Below, piece after piece: positions 16,023 to 56,350 of a stretch of DNA of 64,000 nt. The notes beneath the pieces are model-generated. The model was given only the letters and a program-made list of their open reading frames with translations, ran no database searches and had not been told where the DNA came from. Within the stretch, counting starts at the first letter, position 1. The number at the start of each line of letters is the position of its first letter. Both the position numbers and the translations under genes were made by a program. The stretch covers positions 296,111 through 360,110 of the forward strand of contig JAJVIK010000008.1 of NCBI GenBank assembly GCA_022072055.1, in the 5' to 3' direction. The stretch comes from a bacterium. GTDB taxonomy: Bacteria; Hinthialibacterota; Hinthialibacteria; OLB16.

Positions 16023-17375
16023 TCACTCCTCTCCCACGCTCTGCCTCCAATACCTGAGAAACTCAAACAGGTCCCGGCTGTCCACCACGCCATCTTTGGT
16101 CAAGTCGGTTTGGAGGAGCGCTCCAATCACTTGGTCGGCGGGGGATTGGCTGGTGGGGGTCACAGTGGGTGAGGGCGTTGGGCTGTCGCTTGGTGAAACT
16201 CCGATGACCACGGGCCAGATGGGAAGCGGGACGAGCGTGGGTTCTCCAATGATCAAGTCTCCCCCGATTTGCGTGGGGTTCGCCTCCACGCTCACCCGTG
16301 TCGGATCCGTGGCGGCGGTGGCTTGAGACAGGTCGGTTGCATCCGGATTCTCCTCGGCGGGATCCTCGGAGGCCGCCTCTCCATCCCCGAGGATCGTCAC
16401 CATTCCATCCTGAGTGACCACCGGGATCGCGCGGCTCATTTCGTCATACATCTTGGCCTCCAAAAATCGAAGGGGCGCAGCGGTCCCTTCGGTCTGAGTG
16501 GAGGAAGCACTCCCCTCGAGGATGAGCAGCGCATCCGGGCCGGGAGGCAGTCCCTCCACGGCGGCCATCGAGATCGAATAGCGGCCCTCTCGCTTCTTCG
16601 AGATCAGAAGAAAGGAGTCCGAGGGGCCAGTCCGTTGCACACTCCTCAAGTCGACCCATGCGGGATCAAAGCCAATTTCAAAGTCGCATCCCGCCACGTT
16701 CACCAGGTCGCTGCACGAAAGCGCGACCTGGAAGCCTTCACCGGGATGAACCTCAGCGGACCCCAGCGCCAAGCGTCGTCCGACCGCGGTCGGAGTGGGG
16801 GTCTGGGTCGTTCGAGCGGTGGGGGTGAGGGTCGCCGGATGTGTCGGGGTCGGGGTTACCGCCGCCTCAGTCGCGGTGGCATCCTCGCGCCAGGTCGGAG
16901 TGGGGGACTCGATGCGGGAAGGCGTTGGGGTCAGGCTCGGCTCGGTCTGTCCCCCTTGGCGATTGGGTTTATCGGCGCCGAGGGACCCGGGATTCCCCGA
17001 TCCCTGGAGGGTGTCCAGGTTCGACCCACGCTTCGGGTCCGCCCGTTCTCCTTCGATCTCCCTGCTTCCTTGGGGAAGCATCCCCTGGCGCGGCGCTTCA
17101 TCCGCGGGGCGTGGATTCAACCATCCGGGAGCCACTCCCACCAGGACCTTTCCGATTGCTCCGATTGCTCCAAGCGCCCTGTCCCATAGAGTCTGAACCC
17201 CCACGGTTGGACCGGCGGCGATCAAGGCGGAGGCCAGGCAAACCCCGAGGGTGATGGCCACCAGCCTAAGGGTCTGTTTGTGAGGCGAAGGGGATTTGGG
17301 TTTCATCTTGCCGCCTCCTGCTTCCAGATTTCCAGGAACCGGATCAGATCCTTTTCGTCCACTTGGCCGCTGCAA
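16023..17375 (-). CDS. signal-anchored protein: Thr/Pro linker + cohesin-like domain + TP linker + C-terminal dockerin-like Ca-loop tail
   Basis: AGCDFEIGFDPAWVDL...YSISMAAVEGL...LRFLEAKMYDE cohesin-like block, and C-terminal DLTKDGVVDSRDLFEFLRYWRQ. The real start is probably the MKPKSPS... Met near 17309. Confidence 0.6.
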   Translation of the reverse strand: MQRPSGRKGSDPVPGNLEAGGGKMKPKSPSPHKQTLRLVAITLGVCLASALIAAGPTVGVQTLWDRALGAIGAIGKVLVGVAPGWLNPRPADEAPRQGMLPQGSREIEGERADPKRGSNLDTLQGSGNPGSLGADKPNRQGGQTEPSLTPTPSRIESPTPTWREDATATEAAVTPTPTHPATLTPTARTTQTPTPTAVGRRLALGSAEVHPGEGFQVALSCSDLVNVAGCDFEIGFDPAWVDLRSVQRTGPSDSFLLISKKREGRYSISMAAVEGLPPGPDALLILEGSASSTQTEGTAAPLRFLEAKMYDEMSRAIPVVTQDGMVTILGDGEAASEDPAEENPDATDLSQATAATDPTRVSVEANPTQIGGDLIIGEPTLVPLPIWPVVIGVSPSDSPTPSPTVTPTSQSPADQVIGALLQTDLTKDGVVDSRDLFEFLRYWRQSVGEE

Positions 17376-18563: not shown

Positions 18564-20219
18564 TCAGCGATTGGAACCGACGGCCTTTCTGAGCATGTAG
18601 ACGGCGTCACCGGAATCGACTCGACCGTCGCCGTTGCAGTCGCCGGAGGCGACCTCTCGAACCCTCAATTGGACTTGTTCTTGGTCGGCGCTGTGACGCA
18701 GGGCGCGGATCGCGTCGCCGGAATCGACTTCACCGTCGCAGACCAGGTCTCCGAGACGGCGACCCCCGGCAACCGTCGCCTGCTCCCTCACCTCGAACCG
18801 GCGCTCTTCTCCCACCGGACCGAGGCCCAGGACCCGACCGTCCTGCCCGAGGGACAGTTCCCGGACTCTCCAGGTGTACTGCCCCAATCCGGGAATCTCG
18901 GTCTCCCAAGTCGCTCCCCTGCAGTGGCGGAAAGCAATCCGGTTTTGGGTGGCATCGCTCACCGACACCAGCGACAGACCTTCCGTTGCGCCTCGATTCC
19001 AGGCGAAGGCAACCGCCGCTTGAGGCCCCGGGAACTCCGTCTGGTTCTCAGCTGAAAGAAGCGTCACCGGATCCCCCATCTCGGGAGGCTCAAGGACTTC
19101 TCCGATCGTGAAATGCCAGGTTTCGGAAAATTCCGTTGGGAGGAGATCCTCCCCATCTTGGATGATGGCTCGGACCTTCCAGCTGTAGCGTTCGTCGAGG
19201 ACCGCTTCGGGAACCACCAGCACATAGCTGGTGGCGTCAGTGAGGATGCTTGTCGGCGGATCCGTAATGCCGTGATGGACCGGGCCCATGGGGTCGCCCC
19301 CCATGGGAGGATCCGCCACCCTGAACTTGATTTCGTAATACACCGCAGTTGGAACTTCGGTCCAACTGAATTCCCCTAAGAGCCCATCCGGGGTTGGGTT
19401 GAGGACAGCCTCATCCGGCGGCGAGATCAATTGGGGCGGTTCCACCGCCGTGGTGACCGGCCCCCAGCAGGCCCCATGGTCTCCGCCATAGTTGTAGTCA
19501 AACTGGATCGGGTCGCACCATTCGCCGGGACCCTCCGCGCCGATCGCGCGCACTCGCAACCGATAGGCGCCCTCCCCGCGATTCGATCCATAACGAGGCC
19601 CCGATCCGACCGCCGTCTGAAATCTCCAGGCCTCACCGCTCACGATTCGGTATTCGGGACCGTTGGAGGTCTCCAGGCAGATTTGGTATTGGAAGGCGCC
19701 GGGCGATCGCCTCCAGCGAAACTCATAGTTGTTGCCCTCAACCAGGTCGTAGCCATCAGCCGGGAACAAGACCTCCGGCTTGCTCGGACCGGGTCCGCCG
19801 GGTGTGATGTCACGGGCTACCGTGAAATACCGGATTTCACTCCACGGTCCGAAGGTGGCATTCTGATGCTTGTGGATGGTGTCCGGATCGGCGTACAGGC
19901 ACCGCACCTCCCAGCCGAAAGTTCCTTCCTCGGAAGTCCCGAAACTCAGGCGATCATGCCGGGCAAAGAGGATGTAGCTTTCAAATTCAAAGGAGGTGGC
20001 GGAAATTCTCACCTCGTAGGCCCATGCGTCCGCCACGGCCTCCCACTTCAGAAACAGCATGCTCGGGCCCGGCCCCAACGCCACATAACCATCCGGCGGA
20101 GAGAGCAAGACCGGCGCGGTTTCATCCGCGATGGCGCGGGTCGGGAGCCAGACCACCATGGCCCAGATTCCGGCGGCCCATGCGATTCCTTTCTTGGCAC
20201 GACTGCTTGCTTTCCACAT
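18564..20219 (-). CDS. secreted protein with about 4 FN3-like repeats and a canonical two-repeat dockerin at the C-terminus
   Basis: Repeats of the form LLSPPDG...W..V..A..YEVRIS. C-terminal GDLVCDGEVDSGDAIRALRHS ... GDCNGDGRVDSGDAVYMLRKAVG has two Ca-loop + helix segments, as in type-I dockerins. Confidence 0.6.
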   Translation of the reverse strand: MWKASSRAKKGIAWAAGIWAMVVWLPTRAIADETAPVLLSPPDGYVALGPGPSMLFLKWEAVADAWAYEVRISATSFEFESYILFARHDRLSFGTSEEGTFGWEVRCLYADPDTIHKHQNATFGPWSEIRYFTVARDITPGGPGPSKPEVLFPADGYDLVEGNNYEFRWRRSPGAFQYQICLETSNGPEYRIVSGEAWRFQTAVGSGPRYGSNRGEGAYRLRVRAIGAEGPGEWCDPIQFDYNYGGDHGACWGPVTTAVEPPQLISPPDEAVLNPTPDGLLGEFSWTEVPTAVYYEIKFRVADPPMGGDPMGPVHHGITDPPTSILTDATSYVLVVPEAVLDERYSWKVRAIIQDGEDLLPTEFSETWHFTIGEVLEPPEMGDPVTLLSAENQTEFPGPQAAVAFAWNRGATEGLSLVSVSDATQNRIAFRHCRGATWETEIPGLGQYTWRVRELSLGQDGRVLGLGPVGEERRFEVREQATVAGGRRLGDLVCDGEVDSGDAIRALRHSADQEQVQLRVREVASGDCNGDGRVDSGDAVYMLRKAVGSNR

Positions 20220-20244: not shown

Positions 20245-21000
20245 TTAGGCCGCCGTATCCTTGCCGCCTATGCCCGAAAGCGGCATGGGAATGGTTCTTA
20301 AGTCCACTTCAACCTCGCTTCCATCCACTCGGTACGCCCTCGCCTCTCGGATTGAGAGCGTGGGTGTTTCTCCTTCGCTTTGTGTTCGAACCGGGATCTC
20401 CAGGATCGGCGCGAGCCCGCTCATTGGGACACCCTGTCCCGCCGCCATGGACACTCGGATCATTCCGTCGCCGACCTTGCTTTCCATCAGGAACCCGCGG
20501 TTGACCTCACCGAGCTTGACCGGATCGGGACTGAGGGTCCTCATGTCATAGACAAGAACCAGATCAAGCGCCGCGATCTCCTCTTTGGCCTCCGCGGCGA
20601 TCCCAAAACCGGTGATGGGCGCAAGGACCGGTGGGGTTTGAAGCCGGACAATTCCAAGGATCAGCAGTGTGGCGCAAACACCCGCGGCGAAGGCCATCCG
20701 CGGTGGACTGGCGAACAATCCGCCTAGCGTGAGCCGCTTCCCGGGATCCCTCGATCCCTTGGTCAAGTCCTCTCGGACCAGGGTCCCGCGGATATCCCGC
20801 AGCAGGGTCTTGGGGGGCGGGACATGCCGGAAGCTTGTCACCAGATTCGATGTACGCCGCATCTCCTGGTACTCCTTCCGGCAGGAAGGACAGATCTCGA
20901 GATGACCGTTCAGCCAGACCTTCTCTTCCTCGGCCAGCTCGTCATCCACCGCCGCCGACACCAGGTCGAGGTCGCATTCCGACGGATTCTTCGTGTGCAT
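20245..21000 (-). CDS. anti-sigma factor (zf-HC2, single TM) whose extracytoplasmic domain is cohesin-like
   Basis: N-terminal C-x22-H-x3-C-x2-C (ECDLDLV...NGHLEICPSC) and a TM segment (AFAAGVCATLLILGIV). The C-terminal part, LVLVYDMRTL...GMIRVSMAAGQGVP...LSIREARAYRVDGSE, aligns with the cohesin-like domains of the four downstream proteins. Confidence 0.7.
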   Translation of the reverse strand: MHTKNPSECDLDLVSAAVDDELAEEEKVWLNGHLEICPSCRKEYQEMRRTSNLVTSFRHVPPPKTLLRDIRGTLVREDLTKGSRDPGKRLTLGGLFASPPRMAFAAGVCATLLILGIVRLQTPPVLAPITGFGIAAEAKEEIAALDLVLVYDMRTLSPDPVKLGEVNRGFLMESKVGDGMIRVSMAAGQGVPMSGLAPILEIPVRTQSEGETPTLSIREARAYRVDGSEVEVDLRTIPMPLSGIGGKDTAA

Positions 21001-21035: not shown

Positions 21036-21614
21036 CTACAGGATCTCCGCCAACGGACTCAGTTGCTTTCGCAACGCCTGACGGGCGCGTCGCAGACGAC
21101 TGCGGACAGTCTCCAACGGGATTTGCTCCAACTCGGCAATTTCGGCGTAGGAAAGACCCTCGATGTCGCGCAACACCACAGGCGTGCGATAGATGGGATC
21201 CAGGTTGGCCAAAGCCTGTTCCACCTGTTCCACGGTTTCTCTCTCCTCCAAGGCGTCGCGCGGGGACACGACTGTTTCCTCGGGAACGCTAAGTTCGATC
21301 TCGGACCAATCGCTCTCTTCATCGAGAGCGGACCTCCCGGAGCGCGTCTTGTATTTCCTATGATCGAAATGCAGGTTTGTGAGGATTCTTCGGAGCCAAG
21401 CGTGGATGGTTGCTCCATTTCGGCAGCTTGCATTGGACGAAATCGCGCGTAGGGCGGTGGATTGGAGGAGGTCTCGGGCTTCTTCTTCCGATCCGGTGAG
21501 CCGGAAGGCCAGGTTGTAGAGGGGGGGAGCGTGCCGCTCAAAAAGGTCCCCAAAAGCCTGGACATCACCTTTTCTCCATTTTTCCCAAAGAATTTGATCC
21601 ACTTCCGCGCCCAT
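21036..21614 (-). CDS. ECF (sigma-70 family group IV) RNA polymerase sigma factor
   Basis: Region 2 (FERHAPPLYNLAFRLTG), region 4 (LRDIEGLSYAEIAELEQIPLETVRSRLRRARQAL). Immediately upstream of the anti-sigma gene. Confidence 0.85.
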   Translation of the reverse strand: MGAEVDQILWEKWRKGDVQAFGDLFERHAPPLYNLAFRLTGSEEEARDLLQSTALRAISSNASCRNGATIHAWLRRILTNLHFDHRKYKTRSGRSALDEESDWSEIELSVPEETVVSPRDALEERETVEQVEQALANLDPIYRTPVVLRDIEGLSYAEIAELEQIPLETVRSRLRRARQALRKQLSPLAEIL

Positions 21615-21835
21615 CGGTCGGACTCCTTGGCTTCAGTCCCTGGCGCCTTCACTAATAGAAGACGACAATTCCGGCGGGCGGTGTTCAAATTCCTCCTTGG
21701 GGGCATGCAGGCTTCGAGCCAAGTGGGATTGGCCGGAGCCGACGCCAGTCCAGTGTCCATCTTCGCTCACCCTTTGGGTCGGGATGGCGGATCAGTGATT
21801 GCGGGAGGTTTGGGCTGTGTGAGGGGCTATTGGGT

Positions 21836-41107: not shown

Positions 41108-42913
41108 TTATCTGGCGCACACGATCCGGAACCCAACATACCCGCTGGGCGGAGTTTTCGGTGTGACCGCCACGCGCCAATCGCAGCGCAGGGACTCCAA
41201 TCGGTCCTTCCAGGTTCCTCCGCGATAGACGAGTTCCTTGCGAGGCCCCGGCTCGCACCACTCCCCGACATTCCCGGCCAGATCGTGGATGCCGAGCTGA
41301 TTCGGTTTGAAACTTCCAACTTCGAAGGTTCCGCCGTGGTCTCCGCCGCCGAAATTGGCGTAAGCGGCCGCTTCCTCCGGAGATTCCCCCCAAACATACC
41401 GCCCCGAACCCCCGGCCCGGCAGGCGGCCTCCCATTCTTCTTCCGTGGGCAGGCGAACTTCTTTCCCGAAATGGGATGAGAGCCTTCGGCAGAACTCCCG
41501 GCAGTCCTCCAGCGAGACATTCTCAACCGGGTAGCGCGCCCCCTTGATCTTCGAGGGGTCGAGCGGGAGGTCGTGTTTCGAGACCGGAAGCCCCGCGACC
41601 ACGCTCCCCCACTCCGATTGAGTGATCTCATATTTCCCGATCCGAATCGGACTTCCCGGCAGTTCGACCAACTCAATCCGTTCGCCGCTGGGAAGCGGGA
41701 TGCCCGCGGTGGTCGTGGCCGGGGCGGGCGGCTCCTCAATGAGCGGAGGAGGAGGAGGAAGCGCGGGAAGAGGTGGGGAAACCAGCACATTGCCCAGATC
41801 CAGGACCTGCCCCTCTACAATCTTGATCTCGCCGCGCACTTCCGAGGGGGGTAGGTTCGGCGCCTGAATCCTCAGGCCAGGATAGGTTCCCACCACGAGC
41901 TTGAGCGAGAACGCCCCTTGGATGTCGGCCTCGCCGGCGCGGTCCGTGCCAATCGGGCCCACGCGCGCGCCCCGCAGCGGCGCTTGGGTCGCGGTATCCA
42001 GCAGGATGCCTTTGAGCTCGCCCTCCGGGAGTCGACGGGGCACCAGGATGAACTCCCCGCCCCGGTGGTCGGTCTCAAAGATCGCGCCCATCTGCGGGGA
42101 CTGGGAGGCGTTGCGGGCGATGTCCACCTTCACTTGGTTGAAAACCTGCGAGGAATCCGTCCAACCGCGAGGCGGGTTCTCCAGGGCCTTCAGGAAGTAG
42201 TGCGCGAAGACACTGTGCCCCTCGAACCCTTCGGCGGTCACCGGTTCATCCCCACCGGAGGCCAGGACCAATCGCGATTTCTTCTTGAGGGCCTCGGTCA
42301 CATAGCGGTCCAGTTCCCCCTCGGCCGGCTCCACGGTAACCCCCTTTTCGGCGAACAGACGCCCGGAGAAGCAGGAGTCGCAGACCACCCAGATGTGCCG
42401 CGCCTTCATCGCGCGAACATAGCGCTGGATGCGGTCGCTGGCGATGAAATCAACCTCGCTCTTTCCTTCCACCGGAACCCAGAAAGCATCCCCGGTGAGG
42501 TCATCCTTGGTCCCATGCCCCGAGAAATAGATGAGCAGACTGTTCTCTTCGGTCAGGTTGGAGGCCAGGTCTCGGAGGGAGTCAATGATCGCCTGCTGGG
42601 TCGCGCTTTCATCATAGAGCTCGATGATCCGCTCGAAGCCATACTTGTCGCGGAGCAACGCGGCCAGGGAGCGGGAGTCATGAACGCAATTGGAAAGCGG
42701 GGTGTGGAACCGGTACTTGTCGATCCCGATGACCAAGGCCCATTGACGGCCCACGCCGCCGGTCCATTCCGGCGCGCCGGGAGCCTCCACCGCGACCCCC
42801 TTGAGGTCCTCCGCCGCGGACGGAATACAAAGCCCCAACGCAATGAGTAAACCGAGGAGCTGGGTCATGGCCGGTCTCGTGCATATTCTTTCCCTTTGAT
42901 GGGGCCCTCGCAA
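41108..42913 (-). CDS. secreted caspase-like (peptidase C14) domain fused to a C-terminal FGE-sulfatase/SUMF1-like domain
   Basis: Signal peptide. Caspase His/Cys dyad context (LLIYFSGHG ... VVCDSCFSG). C-terminal IRIGKYEITQSEW...RLPTEEEWEAACRAGG...GNVGEWCEP...YRGGTW...GFRIVCAR are FGE-family hallmarks. Confidence 0.75.
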   Translation of the reverse strand: MRGPHQRERICTRPAMTQLLGLLIALGLCIPSAAEDLKGVAVEAPGAPEWTGGVGRQWALVIGIDKYRFHTPLSNCVHDSRSLAALLRDKYGFERIIELYDESATQQAIIDSLRDLASNLTEENSLLIYFSGHGTKDDLTGDAFWVPVEGKSEVDFIASDRIQRYVRAMKARHIWVVCDSCFSGRLFAEKGVTVEPAEGELDRYVTEALKKKSRLVLASGGDEPVTAEGFEGHSVFAHYFLKALENPPRGWTDSSQVFNQVKVDIARNASQSPQMGAIFETDHRGGEFILVPRRLPEGELKGILLDTATQAPLRGARVGPIGTDRAGEADIQGAFSLKLVVGTYPGLRIQAPNLPPSEVRGEIKIVEGQVLDLGNVLVSPPLPALPPPPPLIEEPPAPATTTAGIPLPSGERIELVELPGSPIRIGKYEITQSEWGSVVAGLPVSKHDLPLDPSKIKGARYPVENVSLEDCREFCRRLSSHFGKEVRLPTEEEWEAACRAGGSGRYVWGESPEEAAAYANFGGGDHGGTFEVGSFKPNQLGIHDLAGNVGEWCEPGPRKELVYRGGTWKDRLESLRCDWRVAVTPKTPPSGYVGFRIVCAR

Positions 42914-52399: not shown

Positions 52400-55300
52400 A
52401 TGAAACCGAAATTGGGACTGATTCTGGTCTTGATCGTCCTCCCTGTGGCGGGAGTTCAGAAGGTGGCCGCCCAGCCCGAAGCTCTGTTCATCGGATCCGC
52501 CGTCAAGTTCATTTACGTGGACGGGAACTTTGATTTCATGGGGCCGAGCACGCCCTCATGCGCGGAGGGGCTGGCAAATTCCGATGGCGGGAACGATCCG
52601 CTGAGCCCGCTTGGACCTCCCCCAACCCTCAACTCCGGGACCGAACTGTATGTCCCGACCTTTCTCAAGGGTGGGCTTTTCACGGGAACCCAAATCGCGG
52701 TCCAGAATGTCGGGGACGCCTCCTCGGTGGTCCGCATCTTTTACTTCGATGAATCCGAGAATTTCATGGGCTGCGACTCGGGGATTGTCACTCCGGGGTC
52801 CTCTCACGTGTTCGACACCGCCGGGATCCAGGTGGATTTCGGCTGCGCCATCATTCAATCGCTCGACCCGGACTCGATTCCGCTTCAAGATCGCTTTGAT
52901 TGCGTGGGCGAACCAGTCCCCTTCAAGAGGAAAGAAGGGGAGAAACTCGCTTTTGTCCCCGGCCCTCCAATCACCGCTCAAGTTCAAATCAACCATGGAA
53001 CAACCTCGCCGGGGGAGCCGGTTCGGGCCACGACTTTCAACGCGTTCTCGGACCGGATGGGGGATGTCAATTTCCAGAGCAATCGCCTGCGCTACATGCT
53101 TCCCCGGGTGGTGACATCGGCCACCCAAACCACCCTCTTCAATGTTTTCAACACAACCCCGCAGGCGACCATCGTGGACCTCACCTACCGGGATGAAGCC
53201 AGTGGCGCGGTGATCCACTCGGCGAGCCTCTATCTGACCGGGTATGACACCCAACCCTACAACGTGAGGGATGTGCTTCAGCAGGATTTCCATGGATCGG
53301 TGATTCTGGAAGTGACGGATGGAGTCGAGACGCCCTTGGCGATTGTCGCCCATCGGGTCAACCTCTCGCCGCTCCTGGTGGGGAGCTACCTCGCGGTCCC
53401 CCTGAATAGCGGAAACTTCGACTACAGCGCCTCGGACCGCGCCTTCGCCCCGATCTCATACGAGCCGGGATCGGAGACTCAGGTCACGCTGGCGAATGTG
53501 GAGAGCTCCACCGAGGACTACACGGTGCAGATCCGTGACTCTTTCGGGGATGTCCTTTCCACTCGGATGGTGACGCTTGGTCCGGAACGCACCGAGACCC
53601 TTTCCTTCCCGGATCCGGGAACATCCGCCGGGCCGCGAGTCGGGTTTGTGCGGATCGACGGAACGGATGAGTTCCACGCGGTCCTCTTCCAGCGTTTCGA
53701 GGACAACACCGAGACCCTCGGTCAATGGGTCACCTATAACATCCACAGCGGCGATGAAACCGTGGGATTCACTCCCTTCGGAGAGAAAGGGAGTCTTCCC
53801 GAGGAGAACGGCGCGGCGGATCTCCTCGCGCTCCCGATGGCGGGGAAACTGGATGCTGCTCACGGACGGGTGACTGAAATCCTCCTCAGCAATCTGAATC
53901 CGCTTCCCGGACTCTCCGCCGCGAACATCCATGTCTATGACAGCGCGGGACTCCGGGATGTTCACTGCGTGCTGCTCCAACCCCTTGAGACCCTTCGCGT
54001 TCCAGTCGATTTCCCTCGCCTCGGCGAAGGGGCGCTGGCCTCGATTGTCATCAAGGGCGCCTCCACCAGCCAAAGGCCGAGCGTGGGGATGAATCAGTTC
54101 AACACCTTCGCCCTCGCGGCGGTGGCGATCCAACGAAATGTGTCCCTTCCCGATCCTCCCGATGCCTCGGTGGAACTCGCCCCCGGCGGCAACGATGTTT
54201 CCGCGTCCTTCGCGGGGAGGTTTGCGTTGGATAATCCGGACAACGGTCCGTATACCCTGTTTTTCCCTGACCTCCGAGGCTCAGCGGACTCCGAGGGTCC
54301 GATGGATGCGCTGAGCTTCCAAGTGATCGGCGATCCGGGGGCTCCGGGAACTCAGATCGGGGTGATCTTCTTCAGCGAGTCGGATGTGGTTGGAACAACA
54401 GTCTCGCCTGTCCTGGCTTATCCGGCGGGCTTTCGCGTGGAGCCGGAGGATATTCCCTCTCAAGCGCGCAGCGCGGCGGCTTTTTCACTGATCGCCAACG
54501 GCACCGCCGCCCTGGGCTTCTCCGCCATCGACAGACTTAACGTATACGCCTTGTTCCGTCATGTTTTCGAGGCCGGAACGCCCCTCCTGGTCCCCTATGG
54601 TCCGATCTCGGGGGTGGCCGAGCGGAATGCACCCTCGGCGTCGGGGGACGGTGGACGGGTCCTTGCCGCTTATGAGTCGATTCCGGACTCGGGCCTGGGG
54701 ACCTTGGATCCGGTCTACTCCGGGTACGCTTATCACCTGCCCTTGCTTCTGGCGGATGAGGGGTTTGACGCCACGCTCACCATTCAGAACGCGGGGCTGT
54801 TCCCCGGCGCGGTCGAGGTCATCCTGCGACGTGAAGGAGCGCTCAAGTCCTCGCCCCTTGTCCGCTCCTTGAAGGACCTCCTTCCGATGGAAGCCGCATT
54901 GGGCGAAAAGCTCCTTCTCTCGAGCGCGGACCAGGTGATCCACCTCGACCCTCTTCGCCCTGGGACCTCCCAGTCGTTGCGCGTGTCGGAGATCGTGGGA
55001 GCCGGATTTCGAGGAAGCGCGGTGATTCGCTCCGCGCAGCCGCTGGCGGTGATGGCCCAGCTTGAAAGCGGCGGGACATCCGCAGCGTACACCGCCGAGC
55101 CTTACGAGCTCAGATATGTCTTCAATGGGATCCCCTTCTTCAGCGAGGGATCCCAGGCCGCTTACTGCCCGCTCATCTTGGACCGCGGGCACGGATGGGA
55201 CACCGGAATCATTGTCCAGAACCTGAACAAACTGGTGGACGCCAAGGTGCGGGTGGACCTTTACTCCAACGCGGGCGAGGTCCTTGAAACGCGGAGTGGG

Positions 55301-56350
55301 TTCATCGCGCCAGGCTCCTCGGCAAGGTTTGATTTCCCCGCGAGCGCGAATGAGATCGATCAGGAGCCGAGCGCCTCGAACTGGCTCCAGGTCATCTCGG
55401 AGGAGATCTGGCAGGAGGGGACCCCTCAAGCTCTTTCCAGCAATATCGCCGTGGTGGCGCACTTGGTGAGAGGCAATGACTCCGGGTGTGTACTGGAATC
55501 GGTCCTCTACAACGCCCTTTCGGAGGGGGAGGCGTTCAACTGGCCCGGAGTCCTGAACGGGGCCGGGACAAGGCACCTGCTGATCCCCTCCTTCCAGAAG
55601 AGTTTCGGAGAGGGACAAGTGAGCAGCGTGGTTTCCGTTGTGAATGTGAACCCGCACCAAGGCTCCAGCACGCTTTCCAATGTCCGCTTTCTGGGGGATG
55701 GCTTCACCACCAATCTGAGCTCGATCTCGGTTCCCCATCGCGAGTCCTTCTTTCTCGATTCGGCAAACTTGCTGGGAATCCCCCCCGGATCCGCGGGGGT
55801 CCTGGCCATGAGCGCCCTGCCCGCGGGCAGCGGCCAGGTGGCCGGTCCCGGTTTCGCGGCGATGGTCCTCCATCGCGCCGAGGGATTGCTCCCTCACCTC
55901 CCCTGCGATGCCACGCCACCAACATCGACACCCACCGATTCTCCCACAGAGACTCCTTCTTTCACGGGCACGCCCACCTCTCCCCCCACCGAGACTCCAA
56001 CCGGCACCCCATCTTTGGTTTCCACCGAAACCGCCACGATCACGGACACCCCCTCCTCGACCGTCACTCCGACCGAGGCGCTCGTGGTCCCAACCGAGAC
56101 CCCCACATTCACCTCTGAGGGACCGACGCCCACGGACACCCTCGGGGGACCGAGCCCGACCGCCAGCCCAAGCCCCACCGAAACCCTGGTGGGACCGAGC
56201 CCCACGCCAACAAATATGTTCGAAGGCCCAACGCCCACAGCAACCCCGACGGAGGATGAGCTTCACCGCGCGGACATCAATCGGAATGGTCGGGTGGATG
56301 AGGAGGACTTGCTGCTGTTGCTCAAGTACTGGTTTCAGTTGGTGGACTGA
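52400..56350 (+). CDS. 1316-aa secreted protein: at least 7 CARDB-like beta-sandwich repeats + Thr/Pro-rich linker + C-terminal dockerin-like tail
   Basis: Signal peptide. Recurrent repeats of about 100 aa (IAVQNVGDAS..., VTLANVESST..., LTIQNAGLFP..., IIVQNLNKLV..., SVVSVVNVNP...). TPT/SPT linker. C-terminal DINRNGRVDEEDLLLLLKYWFQLVD. Confidence 0.7.
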   Translation: MKPKLGLILVLIVLPVAGVQKVAAQPEALFIGSAVKFIYVDGNFDFMGPSTPSCAEGLANSDGGNDPLSPLGPPPTLNSGTELYVPTFLKGGLFTGTQIAVQNVGDASSVVRIFYFDESENFMGCDSGIVTPGSSHVFDTAGIQVDFGCAIIQSLDPDSIPLQDRFDCVGEPVPFKRKEGEKLAFVPGPPITAQVQINHGTTSPGEPVRATTFNAFSDRMGDVNFQSNRLRYMLPRVVTSATQTTLFNVFNTTPQATIVDLTYRDEASGAVIHSASLYLTGYDTQPYNVRDVLQQDFHGSVILEVTDGVETPLAIVAHRVNLSPLLVGSYLAVPLNSGNFDYSASDRAFAPISYEPGSETQVTLANVESSTEDYTVQIRDSFGDVLSTRMVTLGPERTETLSFPDPGTSAGPRVGFVRIDGTDEFHAVLFQRFEDNTETLGQWVTYNIHSGDETVGFTPFGEKGSLPEENGAADLLALPMAGKLDAAHGRVTEILLSNLNPLPGLSAANIHVYDSAGLRDVHCVLLQPLETLRVPVDFPRLGEGALASIVIKGASTSQRPSVGMNQFNTFALAAVAIQRNVSLPDPPDASVELAPGGNDVSASFAGRFALDNPDNGPYTLFFPDLRGSADSEGPMDALSFQVIGDPGAPGTQIGVIFFSESDVVGTTVSPVLAYPAGFRVEPEDIPSQARSAAAFSLIANGTAALGFSAIDRLNVYALFRHVFEAGTPLLVPYGPISGVAERNAPSASGDGGRVLAAYESIPDSGLGTLDPVYSGYAYHLPLLLADEGFDATLTIQNAGLFPGAVEVILRREGALKSSPLVRSLKDLLPMEAALGEKLLLSSADQVIHLDPLRPGTSQSLRVSEIVGAGFRGSAVIRSAQPLAVMAQLESGGTSAAYTAEPYELRYVFNGIPFFSEGSQAAYCPLILDRGHGWDTGIIVQNLNKLVDAKVRVDLYSNAGEVLETRSGFIAPGSSARFDFPASANEIDQEPSASNWLQVISEEIWQEGTPQALSSNIAVVAHLVRGNDSGCVLESVLYNALSEGEAFNWPGVLNGAGTRHLLIPSFQKSFGEGQVSSVVSVVNVNPHQGSSTLSNVRFLGDGFTTNLSSISVPHRESFFLDSANLLGIPPGSAGVLAMSALPAGSGQVAGPGFAAMVLHRAEGLLPHLPCDATPPTSTPTDSPTETPSFTGTPTSPPTETPTGTPSLVSTETATITDTPSSTVTPTEALVVPTETPTFTSEGPTPTDTLGGPSPTASPSPTETLVGPSPTPTNMFEGPTPTATPTEDELHRADINRNGRVDEEDLLLLLKYWFQLVD

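Follow-up and report, generated by a model that had tools for sequence, protein, structure and literature searches.

An ECF anti-sigma factor with a cohesin-like ectodomain encoded in a conserved cohesin-dockerin gene cassette

The question raised by this locus is what an anti-sigma factor could monitor with an extracytoplasmic domain that resembles the cohesin modules encoded beside it. The gene concerned occupies positions 20245..21000 on the minus strand of the 64-kb stretch of DNA that was analysed (referred to here as the window), and encodes a protein of 251 aa whose family is named in public records only as "zf-HC2 domain-containing" or "hypothetical". We found that residues 12-41 match the Pfam zf-HC2 model with 33.5 bits (cutoff 22.2), and a Pfam scan of the protein at E≤1 returned nothing besides zf-HC2. 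The cytoplasmic anti-sigma domain (residues 9-80; 20761..20976, minus strand) contains the ZAS zinc motif H33-x3-C37-x2-C40 together with C9; H33, C37 and C40 do not vary among 10 family representatives, and C9 hardly varies. The best PDB sequence match of a profile of the anti-sigma family was the anti-sigma domain of RsiW (5wuq, E 1.2e-10), followed by RslA and DdvA. An AlphaFold model, built on an alignment of family members only, comprised four cytoplasmic helices, a disordered linker, one transmembrane helix, eight β-strands and a disordered tail of 11 residues, the transmembrane helix at residues 101-121 (20638..20700, minus strand) being the hydrophobic segment MAFAAGVCATLLILGIVRL. The N-terminal zf-HC2 finger and single transmembrane helix claimed in the preliminary description were thus borne out by Pfam and by the model, and the product is, judging from its sequence, a single-pass anti-sigma factor of the ZAS/zf-HC2 class. 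At residue 188 (20437-20439, minus strand), the window encodes G and the database protein P0001, whose match is listed as 100% identity, has A.

An ECF sigma factor of 192 aa is encoded at 21036..21614 on the same strand, 35 nt upstream of the anti-sigma gene, and the two genes directly adjoin in every related locus. This protein matches Pfam Sigma70_r2, r4_2 and Sigma70_ECF, as well as NCBIfam TIGR02937 with 92.6 bits (cutoff 42.9); it has regions 2 and 4 only, as is characteristic of ECF factors, and its nearest models are of the SigE/SigW/RpoE types. Approximately 72 nt upstream of the sigma start codon lies the ECF-type motif TGAACAC-N16-GTCGT(C) (21662..21687, minus strand), TGAACAC-N16-GTCGTC being a typical ECF -35/-10 pair. 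The motif was present at equal distance in all 13 related loci examined, and a loose form of the pattern had one further match only in the 64-kb window; in locus L006, it sits within an over-long annotated ORF. We infer from its sequence and position that the motif acts as a promoter and, since a typical ECF -35/-10 pair stands upstream of the sigma gene, the whole cassette may reasonably be supposed to be autoregulated. The genes of the window cassette stand close together, with gaps of 35, 25, 97 and 47 nt. No terminators or sigma-70 promoters above shuffled expectation were detected inside it, which fits, if weakly, a single operon.

Four proteins are encoded downstream of the anti-sigma gene, all on the minus strand. 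P551 (18564..20219), which starts 25 nt downstream of the anti-sigma gene, has a signal peptide, roughly four non-cohesin modules without a confident domain match, and a C-terminal two-repeat dockerin at residues 485-551 (18567..18767; GDLVCDGEVDSGDAIRALRHS ... GDCNGDGRVDSGDAVYMLRKAVGSNR); no cohesin was found in it by Pfam and domain analysis. P387 (17303..18466) consists of a signal peptide, the cohesins CohA (residues 38-176) and CohB (178-315), a Pro/Thr linker and a single-repeat dockerin tail, ADFDCSGQVDEKDLIRFLEIWKQE. P450 (16023..17306) has an N-terminal membrane anchor, a long disordered region, a cohesin at residues 196-332 (ORF numbering) and a single-repeat dockerin tail, TDLTKDGVVDSRDLFEFLRYWRQ; its true start is M24, giving a protein of 427 aa, and orthologues begin at the equivalent Met. 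The stop codon of P387 overlaps this likely true start in an ATGA (17303-17306, minus strand), as it does in loci L002, L003 and L014, suggesting translational coupling. P329 (14986..15975) carries CohA (37-175) and CohB (177-314) without a dockerin, and this protein and its dockerin-less orthologues end in a conserved C-terminal motif (VENFFLYD, NWRLYD or SWRLYD; NW(R)LYD). Besides that of the anti-sigma factor, the window cassette therefore contains five cohesin modules, on three proteins. Against Pfam PF00963 (cutoff 24.1), P387 reached 35.1 bits and P329 26.0 bits, which identifies them as true cohesins, and P450 reached 22.4 bits, just under the cutoff.

The dockerin of P551 scored 22.8 bits against Pfam Dockerin_1 (PF00404) over residues 490-541, 0.1 under the cutoff of 22.9; both of its ~22-residue repeats of a calcium loop plus a helix are visible, and orthologues carry precomputed PF00404 matches. 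Its helices, DSGDAIRALRHS and DSGDAVYMLRKAV, are nearly invariant between loci, and the dockerin as a whole is nearly invariant where the anti-sigma identity to the window is just 24-38%, with the second repeat being 92% conserved. The tail of P387 has the consensus ADFD..G.VD..DL..FL..W.QE, unlike that of P450, which reads TDL..DG.V...DLF.F.R.W; single-repeat dockerins are functional in R. flavefaciens (PMC12270676). No enzyme domains are present in the cassette products, and the cassette therefore appears to build a non-catalytic cohesin-dockerin assembly.

The preliminary description had claimed that the extracytoplasmic region of the anti-sigma factor aligns residue for residue with cohesin-like modules of all four downstream proteins, and had staked the claim on a significant relationship in pairwise and profile comparison. 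Both comparisons gave one. In BLASTP, the C-terminal ~130 aa matched the N-terminal cohesin of P387 with E 4e-8 (31% over 108 aa), the cohesin of P450 with E 5e-5 (33% over 105 aa) and the first cohesin of P329 with E 0.003, and in hhalign an anti-sigma pair aligned with three neighbour cohesins at 95.4% probability (E 1.8e-8, 84 columns). The likeness thus holds for P387, P450 and P329, and fails for P551, which has a dockerin but no cohesin; the wording "residue for residue" overstated an actual identity of 25-33%, and the "B" modules of P387 and P329 share just ~11% identity with the anti-sigma domain. Homology was demonstrated via paralogues and profiles, because Pfam Cohesin (PF00963) misses the anti-sigma factor on its own, with the gathering score not reached and no match at E≤1. 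An independent HMM, trained on non-anti-sigma cohesins alone from 6 loci, matched all 10 anti-sigma family representatives with 27-58 bits, and gave the window ectodomain 41.0 bits, as compared with 7.9 bits for the best of 2000 shuffles. A profile made from anti-sigma sequences only found the cohesin 2xdh with E 0.0055.

The fold of this region is in agreement with its sequence relationships. The domain spans residues 129-240 (20281..20616, minus strand), starting ~8 residues past the transmembrane helix. With paralogues in the alignment, AlphaFold gave a model with pLDDT 85 and pTM 0.78, for which 50 of the 50 Foldseek matches listed were cohesins; for the model made without paralogues, the first 43 matches were cohesins. 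The structure model of the periplasmic domain, proposed in the preliminary description as a further check, therefore matches PDB cohesins whether or not paralogues are in the alignment, and shows the cohesin β-sandwich. It departs from the nine strands of that fold in that eight are predicted, since the first ~10-15 cohesin residues are missing in every family member and the transmembrane helix runs almost directly into strand 2. The sandwich is nevertheless closed in the model without a partner, and its edge strands have pLDDT above 90. These models make the ectodomain a divergent cohesin-superfamily member that lacks strand 1 and sits right on the membrane. The C-terminal tail (residues 241-251, ...GGKDTAA; 20248..20280, minus strand) is predicted to be disordered (pLDDT below 50) and ends in A or V in 10 of 10 lineages, in 8 of them as [TS][TAS]A; we may speculate that it is a degron, or a handle for a C-terminal-processing, tail-specific or PDZ protease.

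That the similarity arose by chance or from composition would agree with the missing Pfam Cohesin match of the anti-sigma factor taken alone, but this is vanishingly improbable given the 41 bits against at most 7.9 in the shuffles, the matching of all 10 family members by the independent profile, and structural matches that are cohesins only; we regard such an artefact as ruled out by the independent profile, the shuffles and the fold matches. Taken together, these results show that the C-terminal region of the anti-sigma factor is homologous to the cohesin modules of its neighbours, and that the homology reaches to the fold.

A word-indexed protein search with the anti-sigma factor found only itself and one relative with 48% identity. 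An exhaustive search of 1.84 billion representatives yielded ten clusters (50% identity) with full-length matches of 243-270 aa, and the named members were all from "Candidatus Omnitrophica/Omnitrophota" MAGs. Among the best 150 matches of the exhaustive search, an anti-sigma domain and a cohesin were combined only in the 10 family representatives, the remaining cohesin matches being multi-cohesin scaffoldin-like proteins. Narrower yields came from a protein search with a mixed cohesin alignment (one partial protein only) and from a locus search with a 5-sequence anti-sigma alignment (one GTDB species genome only). In every locus with enough sequence, we found an ECF sigma factor, the anti-sigma-cohesin, a ~550-aa protein, and two or three cohesin proteins. 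The gene order was identical in the 8 loci with an intact anti-sigma gene, all short contigs were consistent with it, and the genes flanking the cassette were unrelated from locus to locus. P551 follows directly after the anti-sigma factor, and follows the sigma/anti-sigma pair in each of three extra loci examined; its family comprises nine clusters of about 551-557 aa, one of them truncated to 393 aa. When identities to the window were computed over five related loci, P551 was the best-conserved cassette protein (42-67%), with 46-63% for the sigma factor, 28-48% for the cohesin proteins and 24-38% for the anti-sigma factor. The six-gene cassette, composed of the ECF sigma factor, the anti-sigma-cohesin, P551 and three cohesin proteins behind the putative promoter, is thus conserved.

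In a neighbour-joining tree of all cohesin modules, four clades were resolved (anti-sigma, CohA, TMcoh and CohB), each of which spans all lineages. The separateness of the anti-sigma clade across all lineages marks these cohesins as an old, maintained paralogue and rules out a recent duplication in situ as their source. Paralogous cassettes with a degraded anti-sigma gene were observed in loci L015 (3402-3791) and L016 (2751-3497). In L016, an in-frame TAA just past the transmembrane helix splits off the cohesin part, and in L015 an in-frame deletion has cost the protein helix 4, the transmembrane helix and the N-terminal half of its cohesin. Both loci have an intact promoter and intact genes for the sigma factor, the P551-like protein and the cohesin proteins. 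L015 shares the assembly GCA_964481775.1 with L013, whose cassette is intact. Related organisms also encode P0012 and P0020, proteins of ~900 aa with five tandem CohA-like cohesins that score up to 354 bits against the cassette cohesin profile, and scaffoldin-like proteins therefore exist in this group.

As to what the ectodomain might bind, the motifs common to the anti-sigma cohesin and to CohA/TMcoh lie on strands 3, 5, 6 and 8 (IAaLDLV..FDP, FLM, G.lRVSMAs and ARAY). In solved cohesin complexes, strands 3, 5, 6 and 8 form the sheet that binds dockerin. The invariant D146, on strand 3, aligns with the Asp of ANCDF ("NCDF") in the C. thermocellum CipA cohesin 1aoh, and thereby takes the place of the dockerin-contacting Asp39 of C. 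thermocellum cohesin. There, Asn37 and Asp39 contact the Ser/Thr motif of the dockerin (PMC5772552). The strand-8 motif is specific to each class, being ARAYR.DG in the anti-sigma cohesins, ARWYDE.S in CohA and AK[ML]YD..S in TMcoh, which hints that dockerin specificity may differ between the cohesin classes.

The interpretation in the preliminary description is supported in part: the homology holds, and the suggestion that the sensor may bind the dockerin tails of its own operon, or compete for them, fits this evidence and the conservation of the cassette. A proteolytic step is proposed here because the nearest types to the cytoplasmic domain and the sigma factor, RsiW/SigW and RseA/RpoE, are under the control of regulated proteolysis. 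In the mechanism that we prefer, the membrane-seated cohesin of the anti-sigma factor would bind a cassette dockerin on its strand 8-3-6-5 face, the candidate partner being the two-repeat dockerin of P551 or one of the single-repeat dockerin tails. Occupancy of this socket would either protect the anti-sigma factor from regulated proteolysis, of the kind that RsiW and RseA undergo, or trigger it. The released sigma factor would then drive the cassette from its own promoter, so that sigma activity and autoregulated cassette transcription would track the free versus the assembled dockerin partner, and an envelope structure of cohesins and dockerins, itself non-catalytic, would in this way be given a feedback or a checkpoint on its assembly. 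We put the probability of this reading, namely a ZAS-type ECF anti-sigma factor that has an old and dedicated paralogue of the operon cohesins as its sensor and acts through a dockerin-responsive mechanism, at roughly 45%. More tentatively, and at odds that we would call somewhat unfavourable, the membrane-seated cohesin may be a transmembrane switch that reports whether its dockerin partner is free or assembled and sets the ECF sigma factor for the whole assembly kit. The partner in such a switch would probably be P551 or a single-repeat dockerin protein, and the cohesin-dockerin structure would then monitor itself, in a lineage that is uncultured and possibly host-dependent.

Several observations weigh against the dockerin-responsive mechanism. 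The predicted lack of strand 1 and the start of the domain ~8 residues from the membrane could restrict the access of a dockerin, and the strand-8 motif differs from those of the other cohesins, so that specificity may differ as well. The Pfam Cohesin model, too, misses the domain. Binding to CohA or TMcoh alone could explain the conserved dockerin of P551. L015 and L016 retain P551 and the cohesin proteins despite their degraded anti-sigma genes, and no protease is encoded in the cassette.

Other functions of the anti-sigma cohesin can be envisaged. It might mainly tether the complex to the inner membrane or titrate dockerins, with sigma release driven otherwise, for instance by a general stress on the envelope or by redox chemistry at the zinc site of the ZAS domain. 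P450, which is also membrane-anchored, has a related cohesin, making membrane tethering a theme of the cassette, and the complete ZAS motif with its extra conserved Cys is in keeping with a redox input. However, a plain anchor needs no fusion to an anti-sigma factor, and yet the fusion occurs in 10 of 10 divergent lineages and is maintained as a separate cohesin clade; moreover, most ZAS proteins are not redox sensors, which counts against the redox variant. We therefore consider a tether or decoy unlikely. Rather improbable in our estimation is a ligand other than a dockerin, such as another cohesin, a peptide that replaces strand 1 in donor-strand style, or an envelope glycan. The family-wide absence of strand 1 leaves room for such a ligand, as do the class-specific strand-8 motif and the conserved non-dockerin ending of the P329-type proteins; against it, AlphaFold closes the eight-strand sandwich with confident edge strands and no partner, and the conserved residues are those common to dockerin-binding cohesins. 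The cohesin fold might even have no ligand and merely keep site-2 proteolysis from occurring until it is cut away by an unrelated protease, as many anti-sigma ectodomains act as plugs (RsiW, RseA) and the short disordered tail with its terminal A or V is conserved. This would leave unexplained why a paralogue of the interaction modules from the very same operon should serve as the plug, and why it keeps the surface motifs of those modules across 24-47% sequence divergence, and we judge it quite improbable. We retain the dockerin-responsive mechanism as the preferred reading.

The architecture can be compared with several known systems. As in RsiW and RseA, a cytoplasmic zf-HC2 domain, a single transmembrane helix and a small extracytoplasmic domain are encoded directly after an ECF sigma factor, and the order of sigma, anti-sigma and secreted partner resembles rpoE-rseA-rseB, P551 holding the position that rseB has after rseA; in contrast, the ectodomain here is a cohesin, unrelated to those of RsiW or RseA. 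The FecA-FecR-FecI system likewise has an ECF anti-sigma ectodomain that senses by protein-protein contact with a co-encoded envelope protein, but the present cassette is without a TonB-dependent transducer or FecR domain, and its contact module would be cohesin-dockerin. Non-cellulosomal cohesins from Archaeoglobus fulgidus (2xdh) and Clostridium perfringens (2jh2, 2vo8), organisms without cellulosomes, are among the best structural and sequence matches, and they have no enzymes attached; they are nine-stranded and soluble or secreted, whereas the anti-sigma cohesin is without strand 1 and fused to a transmembrane anti-sigma factor. The tails of P387 and P450 are, like the "group 2" dockerins of R. 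flavefaciens, one calcium loop plus one helix (PMC12270676), although the two have no sequence relationship outside the EF-hand-like loop, and the putative dockerin tails of P387/P450 end in a conserved W-x-Q.

The preliminary description had drawn an analogy with the SigI/RsgI pairs of C. thermocellum, in which RsgI combines an N-terminal domain, an Asn-Pro autocleaving periplasmic domain and carbohydrate-binding sensors (PMC10328401). The analogy stands at the conceptual level, in that the outer domain of the anti-sigma factor is borrowed from the cellulosome-style toolkit under its control (PMC10328401). It does not extend to the components: the partner here is an ECF sigma factor and not SigI, only the ZAS-type zf-HC2 domain and no RsgI N-domain was found by Pfam, the Asn-Pro autocleavage motif is absent from residues 120-251 of the anti-sigma factor, and a cohesin stands where RsgI has its carbohydrate-binding sensor, so that a protein (dockerin) rather than a polysaccharide is predicted as the ligand.

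Full-text searches of the literature brought up papers on cellulosomes and RsgI but none that describes an anti-sigma factor carrying a cohesin, and the papers found on Omnitrophota mention dockerins in giant proteins but not the cohesin/anti-sigma cassette. The combination of an anti-sigma factor with a cohesin is a real, conserved and rare architecture, one that adds a new type of sensor to a familiar class of regulator. To our knowledge, cohesin-dockerin binding has so far been seen only as structural glue. Anti-sigma factors are built of modules, and from each newly found sensor domain one learns what the bacterium monitors; here, the sensor is the interaction module used by the regulated genes themselves. 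If the dockerin-responsive mechanism is true, we would have here a first instance of a transcriptional circuit fed by cohesin-dockerin recognition, and a counterpart to the RsgI factors that senses protein instead of polysaccharide. The system, small and self-contained, consists of six genes with a defined promoter motif and offers three candidate dockerins; it should therefore be rebuildable in E. coli despite the uncultured state of its host, and it could supply an orthogonal, ligand-gated sigma/anti-sigma switch for synthetic biology.

Elsewhere in the window, a 601-aa protein (41108-42913, minus strand) combines caspase-like Peptidase_C14 and FGE-sulfatase domains, and is unrelated to the anti-sigma cohesin. 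A secreted protein of 1316 aa (52400-56350, plus strand), without a Pfam match, ends in a single-repeat dockerin-like tail, ADINRNGRVDEEDLLLLLKYWFQLVD, at 56273-56350; this tail resembles those of P387 and P450, suggesting that dockerin-like tails, and with them possible cohesin clients, occur outside the cassette.
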